The notes below the pieces were generated by a model that saw only the letters and a list, made by a program, of their open reading frames with translations, was not told the DNA's origin and made no database searches. This document shows positions 1,539-8,159 of a stretch of 12,473 bases of DNA, piece by piece. A program made the translations under genes and the position numbers. Source of the DNA: Candidatus Iainarchaeum sp. GTDB lineage: Archaea; Iainarchaeota; Iainarchaeia; Iainarchaeales; 0-14-0-20-30-16. Within the stretch, counting starts at the first letter, position 1, and each line of letters begins with the position of its first letter. Location: contig CAIWXP010000061.1 in NCBI GenBank assembly GCA_903916665.1, positions 1 through 12,473 of the forward strand. Reading direction: 5' to 3'.

Positions 1539-1590
1539 ATGTGATTACCTTATCATAATAAGAATATAAAATATATAAATGCTTACTAAA

Positions 1591-1628
1591 ATAAAAAAAT
1601 AGAAAAAGAATAGAAGCTATAAGCTTCT
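1591..1628 (-). terminator. Hairpin plus T-tract: candidate transcription terminator of the dnaG unit
   Basis: There is a perfect 7-bp inverted repeat agaagct-ata-agcttct at 1612-1628. On the minus strand it is followed by a T-rich run (attctttttctattttttt, the complement of 1591-1611). It lies downstream of the second dnaG-tail copy, not directly after the dnaG stop. Confidence 0.4.
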
Positions 1629-1643
1629 CATTCCTGTGTGTAA

Positions 1644-1670
1644 TTATGCATCATACTCGTGAACGTCAAA
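1644..1670 (-). repeat. Duplicated, synonymously diverged copy of the dnaG 3' coding terminus (encodes FDVHEYDA-stop)
   Basis: The reverse complement of 1644-1670 is ttt gac gtt cac gag tat gat gca taa (F D V H E Y D A *). The true dnaG end, the reverse complement of 1717-1743, is att gat gtc cat gaa tac gac gca tag (I D V H E Y D A *). Over the last 8 codons 17 of 24 nt are identical, and all 7 differences are third-position transitions. Confidence 0.7.
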
Positions 1671-1716
1671 GCATCTGAATGGCACGCGTATGCGGGACTT
1701 CTGAGGTATCGATGTC

Positions 1717-3372
1717 CTATGCGTCGTATTCATGGACATCAATTCCTTTTACTTTGTCCATCTTACCTTTTCTTGATCCTACAACAGCTAATATGCCTCT
1801 GCTCTTTGATAGTTCAACTAATCTCTTAGTTATTATTCCATCAAACAAAAGGTATGCGCCATTCTTTTGATCTTTAACCTGTTTCAAAATATCTTTAACT
1901 TTTGATTCTTCAGTTAATTTTCCATCCTTGTCAAAGAATCTTGCACTGAATGTATTTTTTAATTCATTCATGTTCTTTTTAACATCAACAGGATATCCTT
2001 TGAATTGGTCTTCTCTTTCAGGTAATTTAAATGTACTTTGTCTTGCAGCCGATTCTTTTCTTGGTTCTTCATGTTTATTTTCAAAAACAACTTCTGTTTT
2101 TATGTGCGAAGGAACATTAGAAATAATATCATTTACTTCTTCTGCAATAATATTTTGTTCTTTTAATTCTTGTCTAATATCTGGTTTATACTCTGGCTTT
2201 GGAGCATATTTTGGAAATTTGTTAAACTCTTCTCTTCTATTATCTAAGGGTCTTGGAGACGATCTTGGGCTATCATGATAGCTTGGTCTTGGACTTGAGC
2301 TAATTGATGTGCTGTGATAACCATTTCCGTTGCTATTGCTTGGGCCATTGCTGTGATATGAAGGTCTAGCAGAGTAATTATTATTGGGAGCAGAAGAACT
2401 ACTATGAGTTGAGTAACTGCTTACTGTGTTACTTGATCTTGAAATGCCCGAATCTGTGTTCTTTTCATGAACTTCAATATCTAGAGTGTTGAATAGGTCA
2501 TCATCATTAGATTCCCAGTATTTTTCTCCTAAGTCTATTTCGCCAGACTGCTTGTTAGTTTGAGCAACAGGTATTCTTTTACTTAAAGCAGCCAAAATCT
2601 GTTTCTTGGTTAATTCTTCCACTTCTAAACCCATTGGTGCTCTTGCAATAAAGTCAATTTCAGCAATTTGCAATAGTTTCTTTAAATCTAAAACTCCACC
2701 TCTGTCACCATCTAGAAAAGCAACAGTTGTTTTTCTTTTAGTTAAATCAACAATACTTTGAGGTATCTTTGAACCCCCCATAGCAATTGCGTTCTTGATA
2801 TTGTATTTTAATAAATTCAAAACATCTGCTCTTCCTTCAACTAGGATTATTTCTTCACTTTCTTCCACTGTTGGGCCGGCAGCCAATTTATCGGGACCAA
2901 AGGCAATAACCTTGGCAGTTTGAATATCAAATCTTACTTCATTTGTTATTTCTGTACTATCAGGTATTTCTTCATTCAAAATGTTTGCCAATAGTTCCTT
3001 TGCTCTGTTAACAATTTGCTTTCTCTTTGCGCCTCTAGTATCTTCAATACCTTCAGTTTTAAAGAATGCATCACAGGGGCCTACCTTATCAACTACTTCG
3101 ATTGTTGATGCCAATATAGCAGTTTCAACCATATCTGCTCCAGAAGGAATAGTCAAAGTTCCCTTAGTAACTCCTCTTTCAGAAGCTAGTTCTAGTTCAA
3201 TTCTTCCTATTTTACCTGCGCTTTGAAGTTCTCTTATGTCTAAGTCTTCACCAATTAGTCCTTCAGATTGACCGAAGATTGCACCTATAATATCGTGTTT
3301 GTCTACAACACCTTTGATTTCAAAAGATTGTCTAATAATATACTTAGCTTGATTCAAGTATGTTTTTGCCAT
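1717..3372 (-). CDS. dnaG: Archaeal-type DnaG (Toprim-domain primase / exosome-associated protein) with a low-complexity insertion
   Basis: The ORF is 551 aa. The N-terminus (YIIRQSFEIKGVVDKHDIIGAIFGQSEGLIGEDLDIRELQSAGKIGRIELE) is characteristic of archaeal DnaG. Toprim signatures are present: ILVEGRADVLNL (catalytic Glu) and FLDGDRGG (DxD). An AGGAG sits 10 nt upstream of the ATG. The protein is longer than the ~400-450 aa I expect for this family because of an S/N/P/Y/H-rich segment (aa ~305-376). Confidence 0.9.
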   Translation of the reverse strand: MAKTYLNQAKYIIRQSFEIKGVVDKHDIIGAIFGQSEGLIGEDLDIRELQSAGKIGRIELELASERGVTKGTLTIPSGADMVETAILASTIEVVDKVGPCDAFFKTEGIEDTRGAKRKQIVNRAKELLANILNEEIPDSTEITNEVRFDIQTAKVIAFGPDKLAAGPTVEESEEIILVEGRADVLNLLKYNIKNAIAMGGSKIPQSIVDLTKRKTTVAFLDGDRGGVLDLKKLLQIAEIDFIARAPMGLEVEELTKKQILAALSKRIPVAQTNKQSGEIDLGEKYWESNDDDLFNTLDIEVHEKNTDSGISRSSNTVSSYSTHSSSSAPNNNYSARPSYHSNGPSNSNGNGYHSTSISSSPRPSYHDSPRSSPRPLDNRREEFNKFPKYAPKPEYKPDIRQELKEQNIIAEEVNDIISNVPSHIKTEVVFENKHEEPRKESAARQSTFKLPEREDQFKGYPVDVKKNMNELKNTFSARFFDKDGKLTEESKVKDILKQVKDQKNGAYLLFDGIITKRLVELSKSRGILAVVGSRKGKMDKVKGIDVHEYDA

Positions 3373-5075: not shown

Positions 5076-5147
5076 GGGGTTATCGTACAGCGGCTAGTAT
5101 AACAGTCTCCAAAACTGTCTACCAGGGTTCGAGTCCCTGTAACCCCA
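5076..5147 (+). tRNA. tRNA-Trp (anticodon CCA), uninterrupted, no encoded 3' CCA
   Basis: I folded it manually. Acceptor GGGGTTA/TAACCCC (7 perfect bp), U8, D arm GTAC-AGCGGCTA-GTAT, anticodon arm ACAGT-CTCCAAA-ACTGT (anticodon CCA), variable loop CTAC, T arm CAGGG-TTCGAGT-CCCTG, discriminator A. G1:C72 plus A73 is the archaeal/eukaryal tRNA-Trp identity set, not the bacterial G73. It forms a GC-rich island in AT-rich DNA. An AT-rich TTAATATA box sits ~20 nt upstream. Confidence 0.9.
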
Positions 5148-6003: not shown

Positions 6004-7773
6004 ATGCAATTCGAAGAGTTTTCTGAAAAGTTAAGCCTATTGGAAACAACTGAATCTAGACTAAAGATTAGAGACTATACCTTCGACTTGTTTTCAAGCC
6101 TAGATCCAGAAGAAAGAAGATTTACTACTTATTTATTACAATCAAGAATATTTCCAGCCTATCAAAACAAAGAATTAAACATAGGCCAAAGCATAATTAT
6201 CCAAGCAATATCAAAAAGTTTTGGACAATCAATAAAAGAAATAGAACAGAAACACATGTCTTTAGGAGATCTTGGACAAACAGCAGAATATTTCTCAAAC
6301 ATAAGAATGCAAAAATCATTATTCTCAAAAAAAATTTCATTAAAAGAAGTCTATGATACTTTAAAAAAATTAGTTGAAATGCAAGGAAAATCAAGTACCG
6401 ACAATAAAATTGGTTTATTAACTTCCCTTTTTAATAATAGTTCTGCAAAAGAAACAAAATATATTACCAAAATAATTTTAAAAAGTTTAAGATTAAACCT
6501 CGGTGTTCAAACTATTATTGAAGCCTGCGCATTAAAAGTAATGAAAGATCAAGGCTATAACTTGCACGATGAAAATATGCAAGAATATAAAAAAATAAAA
6601 GAAATAATTGATATTAAACAAAGTATTTCAAATGATTTGGGTTTAGTTGTTTCGTTGGTTTTTAATTTTGGCATTGATGCATTAGATGCTGTTAAAATGA
6701 TTCCTGGAATACCTATAAAAAGTGCTTTGGGAGAAAGAGAAAAAAGTCCAGAAGCAATTATTGAACGTTTGGGCTATTGTATGGTTGAAGGAAAATACGA
6801 TGGTTTTAGAACCCAATTACATAAATTAGAAAATAAAATAAATATGTATTCAAGAAGAGGAGAAGATTCAACAAATTATTTTCCAGAATTTGTTCCCCTA
6901 TTACAAAAAATTAAACATGATTTTATTTTAGATTGCGAAGCCATAGGTTACGATGTTAAAAGTAAAAAGTTTTTAAGTTTTCAAGAAACAATTAAAAGAA
7001 AAAGAAAATACGATATTAAAGAAGTTTCAGAAAAAATACCAATTAAATTAATGGTATTTGATATATTATATTTAGATGGAAAAGAAACAATGAATTTGCC
7101 TTTGGAAGAAAGAAGAAAATTAGTTGAAAAACTAATTGCAGAAATAAATTGTGAAAATATTCAAACAACAATAGCAATTAAAACAGATAAACCAAGAGAA
7201 TTAAAATCGTTCTTTGATAAATGTTTAGAATTAAGTTTAGAAGGAATAATGGCAAAGGATCTAAAGAAATCCTATGTTCCTGGTTCAAGAGATTTTGGTT
7301 GGATTAAATTAAAGAAAAATTATTTAGAAGGCCAAGCAGATAGTTTTGATGTTTGTATTGTTGGTTATTTTAATGGGCAAGGTAAAAATAATAATTTGCC
7401 TTCTAGTTTACTATGTGCTGTCTATGATGAAGAACACAATGTTTACAATGTAATTGCAAAAGTTGGTTCTGGATTAACTGAAGAACAAATGAATTTTTTT
7501 AAATTAGAATTTGAGAATATAAAAACATCAAAACCAGAAAATGTTAATACTGATTTAAAAGCAGATGAATATGTTGAACCGAAATATGTTATTGAAATTA
7601 TTTGTGATGAAATTACAAAAAGTCCTTTATATAAATTTACAAAAGGATACTCATTTAGATTTCCTAGATTTATTAAAATAAGAGATGATAAAAGTTCTCA
7701 AGACACAACAACTGTTGAAGAAATTGAAGAAATGTACTATTTACAACACAAAAATCAAACACCAATTAGATGA
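6004..7773 (+). CDS. lig: ATP-dependent DNA ligase (archaeal/eukaryal Lig1 type, with an N-terminal DNA-binding domain)
   Basis: The ORF is 589 aa. It has motif I EGKYDGFR (the adenylated Lys), SRRGED, LDCEAIGYD, MVFDILYLDG, EGIMAKD, WIKLKK and an OB-domain tail ending FPRFIKIRDDK. The size and motif order are canonical. Confidence 0.95.
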   Translation: MQFEEFSEKLSLLETTESRLKIRDYTFDLFSSLDPEERRFTTYLLQSRIFPAYQNKELNIGQSIIIQAISKSFGQSIKEIEQKHMSLGDLGQTAEYFSNIRMQKSLFSKKISLKEVYDTLKKLVEMQGKSSTDNKIGLLTSLFNNSSAKETKYITKIILKSLRLNLGVQTIIEACALKVMKDQGYNLHDENMQEYKKIKEIIDIKQSISNDLGLVVSLVFNFGIDALDAVKMIPGIPIKSALGEREKSPEAIIERLGYCMVEGKYDGFRTQLHKLENKINMYSRRGEDSTNYFPEFVPLLQKIKHDFILDCEAIGYDVKSKKFLSFQETIKRKRKYDIKEVSEKIPIKLMVFDILYLDGKETMNLPLEERRKLVEKLIAEINCENIQTTIAIKTDKPRELKSFFDKCLELSLEGIMAKDLKKSYVPGSRDFGWIKLKKNYLEGQADSFDVCIVGYFNGQGKNNNLPSSLLCAVYDEEHNVYNVIAKVGSGLTEEQMNFFKLEFENIKTSKPENVNTDLKADEYVEPKYVIEIICDEITKSPLYKFTKGYSFRFPRFIKIRDDKSSQDTTTVEEIEEMYYLQHKNQTPIR

Positions 7774-8159
7774 TAACTATGAAAGCACATATTAAAAACA
7801 AAGTACCAAAAGGAAAATTTAGAACCTATCATTTAACTCGTGCATTGTCATTACACGAAATTAAAAAAATTCCTTGTAAGACTTTTTCTGTTTCTCCAAG
7901 TACATTAAAAAGATTTTCAAAAAAAGTAAAAGAATTTTTAACCCATAACAAATATCATTTGTTAATAGAAAAACACAAAGGAAAACCTTTAGAAACTGAT
8001 CCAAAGGAAATATTAGAAATAATTAAGGCCTATAGATCTGGACAAAGCTATAGAGCTATTGAAAAGAAATTTAAAATTGCAAAAAGTACTGCACATTATT
8101 TAGTTAAGCATGCAAAGAAAACAAAAATAAAAAAATCAGGAACAATAATTACTGTTTAA
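7770..8159 (+). CDS. Small basic protein with two helix-turn-helix-like segments (putative DNA-binding regulator; resembles the N-terminal DNA-binding module of a transposase)
   Basis: The ORF is 129 aa. Its ATG overlaps the lig TGA (ATGA at 7770-7773); an alternative ATG is at 7779. The candidate HTH segments are FSVSPSTLKRFSKKV and GQSYRAIEKKFKIAKSTAHYLVKH, joined by a KHKGKP linker. Its stop overlaps the stop of the convergent gene (TTAA at 8156-8159). Function is unverified. Confidence 0.55.
   Translation: MITMKAHIKNKVPKGKFRTYHLTRALSLHEIKKIPCKTFSVSPSTLKRFSKKVKEFLTHNKYHLLIEKHKGKPLETDPKEILEIIKAYRSGQSYRAIEKKFKIAKSTAHYLVKHAKKTKIKKSGTIITV

Follow-up and report, generated by a model that had tools for sequence, protein, structure and literature searches.

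We analysed a stretch of 12,473 nucleotides (nt) from Candidatus Iainarchaeum sp. (positions 1 to 12,473 of contig CAIWXP010000061.1), called the window below, and focused on the 3' end of its dnaG gene, where the last seven codons occur a second time beyond the stop codon. Coordinates are those of the whole stretch, and dnaG, its tails, the spacer and the hairpins all lie on the minus strand. We name the expressed end tail A, the intervening sequence spacer S, the second copy tail B and a third copy tail remnant C (Table 1).

An earlier note on this DNA, made from the letters alone, had reported two copies encoding DVHEYDA followed by a stop, and both were found at the positions that it gave. 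Tail A reads gat gtc cat gaa tac gac gca TAG (1740-1717) and tail B reads gac gtt cac gag tat gat gca TAA (1667-1644). The degenerate DVHEYDA-stop pattern GAYGTNCAYGARTAYGAYGCNTRR matched these two sites only in the window and none in 200 dinucleotide-preserving shuffles. Furthermore, among 219 open reading frames (ORFs) of the window and related loci, dnaG was the sole one with its last seven residues repeated past the stop. The sense codons of the two tails differ at six positions, all of them synonymous third-position transitions, and the seventh difference is TAG versus TAA; the wobble-only divergence described earlier is therefore correct, as is the arithmetic of the chance figure attached to it (8/346104). 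The differences are spread over the whole tail, and the longest run common to both copies is ~6 nt. The offset of 73 nt, the +1 frame of tail B and the reading of that frame through the spacer into tail B (...LMSMNTTHRTSIPQKSRIRVPFRCFDVHEYDA, then the stop) were also confirmed. This frame is open from 1748 and contains two ATG codons in the window.

Table 1. Features at the 3' end of dnaG in the window (L numbers denote related loci).
Feature	Position	Strand	Description	Basis
dnaG	1717..3372	-	Archaeal-type DnaG, 551 amino acids, Toprim domain	ORF list; Pfam Toprim_4 and Toprim_2
Tail A	1717..1740	-	DVHEYDA + TAG, expressed last seven codons	Sequence; codon match with L002
Spacer S	1668..1716	-	49 nt, 51% G+C; initial ~14-18 nt match, as reverse complement, the codons leading up to and beginning the tail	
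Tail B	1644..1667	-	DVHEYDA + TAA, 73 nt downstream, +1 frame	Sequence; comparison with L049 and L001
Hairpin 1	1704..1747	-	5' arm 1747-1731 (K-G-I-D-V-H codons), loop 1730-1722, 3' arm 1721-1704	
Hairpin 2	1652..1692	-	CAUACgCGUG pairs with CACGaGUAUG of tail B	Predicted fold
Terminator-like hairpin with T tract	1590..1635	-	Hairpin 1635-1606, then T tract	Hairpin scan places the stem at 1628-1612
Tail remnant C	1617..1633	-	GAATGAGAAGCTTATAG, degenerate last codons (compare GAATACGAAGCATAATG in L004)	12/15 match at +83; compared with L004, L006

The length and composition of the spacer also agreed with the earlier description: its G+C content stands against ~21% in the flanking intergenic DNA and 27-46% in the dnaG coding sequence. 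Positions 1717-1708 (GGACATCGAT) are the reverse complement of the first tail codons ATTGATGTCC and belong to the 3' arm of a hairpin. A weaker third echo of the tail had been suspected at 1689-1716 as a direct copy, which was not borne out; the inverted hairpin arm (1717-1708) was found instead. The hairpin scan confirmed that the sole terminator-like hairpin with a T tract lies past tail B.

A domain scan matched Toprim_4 and Toprim_2 in DnaG. More than 7800 archaeal homologues were found, the closest named ones being from DPANN archaea (Diapherotrites/Iainarchaeum and Micrarchaeota), and about a dozen close relatives share the C-terminal consensus K-G-I-[DE]-[VA]-x-E-[YF]-[DEN]-A. An AlphaFold model built with 78 homologues showed a folded C-terminal domain with a predicted local distance difference test score (pLDDT) above 90 at approximately residues 460-550 (10-residue block means of 93-97), in which DVHE (residues 545-548) forms the final beta strand. 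DnaG is among the subunits of the archaeal exosome, whose RNA degradation proceeds from the 3' end, and in Sulfolobus exosome binding requires the C-terminal domain of DnaG (PMC4227792). The tail is thus a structural element under strong protein-level constraint. The window DnaG stops at the same residue as every single-tail orthologue compared, and an identical DnaG is encoded on a second contig, ERZ1426847. The neighbouring genes of dnaG are a radical SAM gene and a DUF167 gene. Between approximately residues 300 and 450 (window 2020-2470) the protein carries a low-complexity linker of ~150 residues, rich in Ser, Asn, Pro and Tyr and predicted to be disordered (pLDDT <50), which varies greatly in length and sequence among close relatives (proteins of 481-562 residues). 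P0008, a 350-residue product encoded on a 2061-nt ENA contig, shows 100% identity to the window DnaG over its first ~60% and then departs from it within this linker, which points to the same gene, assembled with a frameshift or from a variant strain.

Recurrence of the double tail in related loci

For comparison, we obtained DNA sequences of the dnaG 3' end at 12 related loci, all in independent assemblies, giving 13 loci with the window. The layout of tail A, a 48- to 49-nt spacer and tail B was present in three of the 12 (L007, L043 and L049), which together with the window are referred to as carriers. L049 was reached through the DnaG fragment P0121, the only return of a search with a synthetic fused C-terminus. 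The tails of L007 both encode DVHEYNA, tail A ending in TGA, and those of L043 both encode DVYEYDA, tail A ending in TAA; in both loci the spacer is 48 nt long, the offset from A to B is 72 nt, and tail B lies in the open frame of dnaG. In L049, as in the window, the spacer is 49 nt, the offset is 73 nt and tail B is in the +1 frame; tail A encodes DVHEYDA with the stop TGA, tail B encodes DVHEYEA, and a TGA lies three codons ahead of tail B. In the remaining nine loci there is one tail only, and a terminator hairpin with T tract comes immediately after it.

In the carriers, copy B and the homologous spacer thus recur. Across the four of them, tails A and B differ at 18 positions, all of them third codon positions, and 17 of these differences are synonymous. 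The view that the copies diverged as protein-coding sequence rather than as a decaying duplicate therefore holds. The identity of the spacers between carriers is 68-78%, compared to 46-63% at third-position/synonymous sites of the adjacent coding sequence for the same pairs. These comparisons indicate that the double tail is neither an assembly artefact, because the same layout is present in four independent assemblies, nor a private scar, but a structured variant that members of a DPANN-type clade share at the dnaG 3' end.

Tail B of the window is identical to the expressed tail A of L049 (21/21 nt), and tail A of the window matches tail B of L049 at 19 of 21 positions. Much of this cross-identity is explained by the two-fold degenerate silent sites, given that A differs from B in each genome, but within this group either kind of tail does occur as an expressed gene end. 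An allele swap between the window and L049 was considered as a sign of an extra unit in L049 and rejected, as both have the third copy at +83. In L049 this third partial tail (GAATATGATGCAGAATAA, at about 396-413, +83 nt from the first stop) is nearly intact, with a 14/15 match. L005 showed hairpin 1 in part. At L005 4522-4625 an inverted arm, AACATCAAT, lies directly past the stop, and TACCATCCAGATGTTCAATTTGTAGTTTAG follows ~80 nt further as a candidate end of a decayed spacer and tail B. This locus may hold a decayed spacer and tail B, a marginal match that 14/500 and 19/500 shuffles equalled in score.

Hairpins, the stop codon and translation past it

In all carriers, the I-D-V-[H/Y] codons of dnaG can pair with the beginning of the spacer, and the stop codon lies inside the 3' arm of the resulting hairpin 1. 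In the window the spacer start makes up this arm, which holds the TAG with A1718 bulged. The folding energy was -18 kcal/mol in the window and -14 to -18 kcal/mol across all four carriers. The arms pair as GUUUACG/CGUAAAC in L043 (stop UAA), GUUCACG/CGUGAAC in L007 (stop UGA), GACGUUCA/UGAACGUC in L049 (stop UGA) and GUCCAUG/CAU(A)GGAC in the window (stop UAG), so that the type of stop codon tracks the paired codon in the arm. Counted from the arm sequences, four of 13 pairs are altered on both sides across the carriers. Tails that end in GCG, continuous with the arm, occurred only in L043 and L007 among all tails. A perfect complement in the window would read GCA TGG ACA, which is sense and would fuse dnaG to the frame of tail B. 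The bulged A1718, an extra base in CATAGGAC, makes the stop TAG and simultaneously puts tail B out of frame.

The region as a whole folded more stably than shuffled sequences (z = -3.8 in the window, -3.2 in L007 and -3.9 in L043). In L007 the arm can pair with either tail A or tail B, and the minimum-energy fold differs from the centroid. Hairpin 2 was only partly reproduced in L007 and L043 and seems, from this comparison, specific to the lineage of the window. Searches of the window and the three carrier loci against Rfam, at the gathering threshold and at E up to 10, returned only noise at the site, and ARAGORN found no tRNA or tmRNA there, the sole tRNA of the window being tRNA-Trp at 5076-5147. 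A bulge-helix-bulge intron was rejected on inspection of the folds, without a dedicated search, since the stems are continuous (12 base pairs in L043) with at most one bulged base. A C/D-box small RNA or a tRNA fragment was likewise rejected, as no box motifs were seen when judged by eye.

These folds raise the possibility of a functional RNA element in the 3' untranslated region (UTR) of dnaG, in which hairpin 1, perhaps with alternative pairing to tail B, would be selected to control mRNA stability, 3'-end formation or read-on into the gene downstream, and the tail duplicate would persist as one arm of a switch. Such an element could coexist with the origin that we propose below, and autoregulation is conceivable for a subunit of the exosome (PMC4227792). 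The strength of hairpin 1 in all four carriers with its four two-sided pair changes, the folds that beat shuffles, the alternative pairing in L007 and the conservation of the spacer beyond that of synonymous sites are all consistent with this idea. However, RNA constraint does not explain the purely synonymous variation of tail B, nine of the 13 loci do without it, the long outer stem and hairpin 2 are both lineage-specific, no Rfam family matched, and the downstream genes differ among carriers. The covariation of hairpin 1 alone does not prove function either, because template switching can itself yield compensatory changes without selection; it is reported to form perfect stems, together with compensatory changes of several bases, in a single step (PMC8794818). 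We regard an RNA element as an improbable explanation of the locus.

The position of the stop codon in the arm also bears on translation. The earlier note had suggested a +1 shift near or at the TAG, and we kept this as a rival in a broader form, in which ribosomes would sometimes pass the dnaG stop and yield an isoform with 24 additional residues that ends once more in the terminal beta-strand motif. In L043 and L007 this passage would be near-cognate readthrough, and in the window it would be a +1 shift at GCA-UAG-G. A conserved frame relation, however, was not found: in L043 and L007 tail B shares the frame of dnaG, but in the window and L049 it is shifted by +1. In a softer version the stop within the hairpin arm would be mutationally fragile, the extension would be translated intermittently over evolution, and tail B would serve as a fail-safe C-terminus.

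Several observations fit such recoding. The second unit of L043 and L007 lies exactly 72 nt downstream, in an open frame, and the predicted extensions are collinear: TSIPQKSRIRVPFRCFDVHEYDA in the window (after one residue, in the shifted frame), TSNPQKSRLRVPFRGIDVYEYDA in L043 and TSNTSEVSLRVSFRGIDVHEYNA in L007. Pairwise changes in extension codons 9-24 fall at positions 1/2/3 as 6/0/8, 5/0/5 and 3/0/9, and in L007 a 1-nt insertion and a compensating deletion hold the spacer at 48 nt. Tail B shows what looks like strong protein-type constraint, its differences from tail A being almost exclusively synonymous. In addition, since the tail makes up the final beta strand of a domain modelled with confidence, an overrunning protein would need such a strand again. 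The window hairpin points the same way, since its perfect form would have TGG in place of the stop and thereby join the two frames.

Other observations weigh against recoding. Tail B is out of frame in two of the four carriers; two in frame out of four is in line with chance expectation (one in three for each to be in frame, by our own calculation), and L049 has the internal TGA besides. The carriers use three different stop codons, and base pairing accounts for which one each has. Hairpin 1 includes the stop rather than following it and would be unwound on arrival of the ribosome; it cannot act on a terminating ribosome because the stop sits inside the hairpin and not before it. The earlier note had also proposed looking for a frameshift-stimulating fold; no conserved structure was found 5-10 nt downstream of the stop in the window, L007 or L043, and the next structure in the window starts 24 nt past it. 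In the analysis of L043, the third positions of the spacer align with the complements of dnaG third positions, and the coding-like pattern of the spacer can therefore be mirrored from the coding arm. L007 is frame-shifted in extension codons 4-8, and a change of G-I to C-F in the window suggests relaxed constraint. No DnaG with a fused extension was present among the 120 closest homologues or in the exhaustive search, and in archaea the only demonstrated recoding is selenocysteine or pyrrolysine readthrough/redefinition and -1 frameshifting (PMC8211752).

Passage of ribosomes beyond the stop thus appears unlikely to account for the layout. Still less probable is the full claim that DPANN-type archaea recode the dnaG stop, by readthrough or a +1 shift according to lineage, to make a minor isoform with a 24-residue extension and a second beta strand; a stop in the hairpin arm that small changes of the stem would switch between stop and sense is part of the same proposal. 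If it were true, it would represent a new class of translational recoding in archaea, namely the first near-cognate readthrough or +1 recoding there, and in a core protein of replication and RNA decay.

The earlier note had further suggested an independent peptide of 29-31 residues, starting at ATG 1739 or 1733 and mimicking the DnaG C-terminus. The open frame with its two ATG codons in the window is consistent with such a peptide, but the other carriers argue against it. In L007 and L043 that frame is the dnaG frame itself, which ends at the stop; beyond it L007 offers no in-frame ATG, GTG or TTG, and L043 has only a GTG at codon 11, downstream of the conserved sequence. In L049 a stop precedes the tail. 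An exhaustive protein search of 1.84 billion representatives with the 34-residue ORF of the window returned no match. The small ORF was therefore not supported, and we consider it extremely improbable.

Origin of the second tail

We propose, with a probability of roughly 0.5, that the layout arose by a template-switch duplication in which the inverted arm gives a working stop, tail B and the older copy C are left in the 3' UTR, and recombination keeps tail B fresh. Tail B is most likely a former 3' end of dnaG that has been displaced into the 3' UTR. In the proposed sequence of steps, a fold-back template switch during replication at the end of dnaG would copy the preceding codons backwards, giving the start of the spacer and hairpin 1, and synthesis would then re-copy the gene end forwards, duplicating the tail. 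The upstream copy A would stay expressed, with the inverted arm itself providing the stop. The reverse complement of GT[T] [C/T]AC G is C GT[G/A] AAC, which would be read as ...G followed by CG T[G/A]A, and the protein would remain unchanged and still end in ...YDA-stop because the arm supplies the stop codon.

Several features of the locus are consistent with this origin. A stretch of sequence is followed by its reverse complement and then by a second copy of its end, which is just what a replication template switch leaves behind. An inverted copy of the adjacent sequence is present in the window, where 1717-1704 and 1747-1731 align locally as CATAGGACATCGATACCT and CAT-GGACATCAATTCCT, and likewise in L007, L043 and L049. 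The single-copy state expected before the event is present in the nine related loci with one tail and then a terminator. The dnaG S-R-K-G codons recur as their reverse complement (TGCCATTTCGAG) at the distal end of the L043 spacer, a match that only 4/2000 shuffles scored as well, and the region of this locus folds as a long imperfect hairpin. The length of the spacer, 48-49 nt, is approximately that of the proposed template. A whole spacer made of inverted dnaG sequence was also considered and found support in L043 only.

By its surroundings, tail B and not tail A has the native context of the gene end. Tail B and its 3' flank (GAGTATGATGCATAATTACACAC...) are homologous to the true gene end and flank of L001 (GAGTATGATGCTTAATTCCAACAC...), and the same terminator follows in both. 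The terminator of the window is homologous to those directly 3' of dnaG in L001, L003, L004, L006, L008 and L049. It is likely the 3' end of the dnaG transcript; hairpin 1, the spacer and tail B would probably all be part of that transcript, up to 1635-1590 where the terminator lies. Tail B of the window, being out of frame, is probably untranslated. Tail remnant C forms the 5' arm of this terminator hairpin. In L043, tail B is followed immediately by its own terminator arm (GAUGCA...UGCAUC), and in L002, L004 and L009 the coding tail itself is the 5' arm of the terminator. Judging from these arrangements, older gene ends seem to have been recycled repeatedly into terminators. The free-standing terminator arms of L001, L003 and L008 (A[AT]ATGAG) resemble the tail-embedded hairpin of L009.

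Tail A of the window, by comparison, resembles other lineages. In a comparison of identity among the loci, the last 300 nt of dnaG appeared as mosaics. From -280 to -160 nt before the stop, the window dnaG has 0.92-0.95 identity to L001/L004; after -160 it is closest to L003 (0.88-0.92), and at the very end to L002 (0.87, versus 0.65 to L001). Its last ~45 codons, tail A included, resemble L002/L003, and tail A matches L002 at 22 of 24 nt. The dnaG end of L049 switches among partners that resemble L006-L009, L001/L004 (0.97), the window and L043. These comparisons indicate that the dnaG 3' ends are recombination mosaics. In our proposal, the layout would be an old structural variant, present in at least four of the 13 related lineages and reshuffled by homologous recombination between lineages, and deletion between the direct repeats could remove it. 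Exchange with functional tails would keep tail B resembling a working gene end, whereas the older copy C decayed. The routes by which tail B might be refreshed are inter-lineage recombination, gene conversion, or cycles of repeat deletion and re-acquisition.

The condition of tail B and of the spacer weighs against a template-switch relic. The pattern of differences between A and B described above has P ~1e-6 if B drifted neutrally from a copy of A, and B tracks A in its amino acids, with Y for H in L043 and N for D in L007. The four B copies together have 2, 0 and 6 variable columns at first, second and third codon positions, respectively, a codon-structured distribution (Fisher p = 0.003). 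The adjacent synonymous sites are less conserved than the spacer, whose G+C content has not drifted to the ~20% of intergenic DNA. In the window and L007, the inverted copy was detectable only in the first 10-18 nt of the spacer. By these measures tail B appears too intact for a passive relic. Two accounts can be given of this: repeated refreshment from functional tails, or translation, either now or intermittently in the past. Refreshment by recombination is itself a proposal and would need crossovers within the 24-30 nt tail.

The earlier note had also considered a recombination or integration scar carrying the end of a diverged homologue. The recombination part of this suggestion came closest to our findings, with some changes: the native context belongs to tail B (the flank and terminator of L001) rather than to tail A, it is the end of the gene with tail A that resembles L002/L003, and the layout is present in four lineages. 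The integration part did not stand, as neither an element nor an integrase was found nearby. In that form, a lost plasmid or virus that targeted the dnaG 3' end with its own copy of that end would have left attL/attR-like repeats. Synonymously diverged duplicates of gene 3' ends are typical of elements that integrate into gene ends, and the tRNA-Arg beside dnaG in L003 and L004 has a second copy of its last 20-21 nt, which shows that this neighbourhood collects such repeats. However, the copies are separated by no more than 49 nt, the four lineages have homologous spacers of equal length, the spacer starts as an inverted copy of dnaG itself, and the tails of the window share no identical core (the ~6-nt run being the longest). 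Viral contigs, to which this search was confined with plasmids of the clade outside it, yielded no spacer, dnaG C-terminal fragment or double tail. An integration or excision scar is thus very unlikely.

A related concern was that the unit might be a mobile repeat scattered elsewhere. The spacer pattern ACATCN{1,3}ATACCTCNGAAGTC had no match in viral contigs and 31 in a collection of representative genomes that does not include the window's own genome, approximately the number expected by chance (own calculation). The 31 matches are mostly bacterial by title; L039, the single one with an archaeal title and the only one read, is an unrelated G+C-rich sequence. No dispersed copies were therefore seen in these two collections.

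The gene 3' of dnaG varies among the loci. In the window it encodes a 324-residue radical SAM protein (564-1538), and in L006 (4580-5818) and L049 (483-1721) a 412-residue B12-binding radical SAM protein, together with a methyltransferase; in other relatives tRNA-Arg lies directly downstream of dnaG. From this comparison, the interval between dnaG and tRNA-Arg is apparently a variable insertion site. The tRNA-Arg(GCG) downstream of dnaG in L003 (3246-3460; the same sequence in L044) and L004 (3808-4010) is followed by a hairpin-rich spacer of ~100 nt, with the hairpins GAACATTTGCAAAATGTTC and AAGGCC..GGCCTT. These spacers are homologous between the L003 and L004 lineages, and the second copy of the last 20-21 nt of the tRNA beyond them is exact. 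On its sequence, this repeat looks like an att-type 3'-end duplication or a miniature insertion. Upstream of DUF167-dnaG, L001 (195-837) and L002 (1872-2511) carry a pair of PIN-domain and ribbon-helix-helix genes of toxin-antitoxin-like type, which is absent from the window. Elsewhere in the window, an ORF of 129 residues (7770-8159) with a resolvase/transposase-type helix-turn-helix (HTH_7, HTH_SB) and no catalytic domain starts 4 nt before the stop of an ATP-dependent DNA ligase gene.

If the template-switch origin is correct, the locus would be an unusually clear natural case of a single template-switch event that remodels a gene end and leaves the protein unharmed: the inverted copy would supply the new stop, and the old end would remain as a dated fossil. 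The dnaG 3' end in these small archaeal genomes would then be a hot spot where old tails stack and lineages exchange sequence. The case also calls for caution, in that compensatory base changes and purely synonymous divergence can arise and persist without the function usually inferred from them.

Comparison with known systems

Programmed readthrough and +1 frameshifting are known from Q-beta A1, the gag-pol of murine leukaemia virus (MuLV), prfB, antizyme and Ty3. Like these sites, dnaG has an open conserved frame past the stop in two lineages, the GCA-UAG-G of the window resembles slow-stop +1 sites, and a functional motif would lie in the predicted C-terminal extension. Unlike in these systems, the frame, the identity of the stop and its context are not conserved, and the hairpin includes the stop. 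Translational bypass elements are found in phage T4 gene 60 and as the G+C-rich 'byp' inserts of Magnusiomyces mitochondria. They share with the dnaG locus an insert of ~50 nt that is G+C-rich in an A+T-rich genome, a hairpin with a stop codon and matching flanking codons. However, a bypass element interrupts an incomplete frame, whereas the DnaG frame is already complete when the first stop is reached, and hopping would make no difference.

The attL/attR duplications that integrative elements leave at the 3' ends of tRNA genes and some protein genes likewise show two copies of the end, a foreign-looking expressed copy, a displaced native copy and differences at silent sites. The dnaG case departs from them in having no element, integrase or identical core, and only 49 nt between the copies, partly of inverted gene sequence. 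Terminators that use the last codons as their 5' arm are present in the single-tail loci L002, L004 and L009 and in tail B of L043, for example GAAUACGA/UCGUAUUC and AAUAUGAGG/CCUCAUAUU, each followed by a T tract. Hairpin 1 differs from these terminators in its register, which covers the I-D-V-H codons, and in having no T tract after it.

Compared to the usual template-switch mutation, the inverted copy at dnaG is coupled to a direct re-copy of the last codons, the arm supplies the stop, and the product persists in several diverged lineages, with demonstrable inversion confined, outside L043, to the first 10-18 nt of the spacer. What the dnaG end has in common with template-switch mutations is a reverse-complement copy adjacent to its source, perfect or near-perfect stems, several pair changes made at once on both sides and a complex local rearrangement that one event can explain (PMC8794818).

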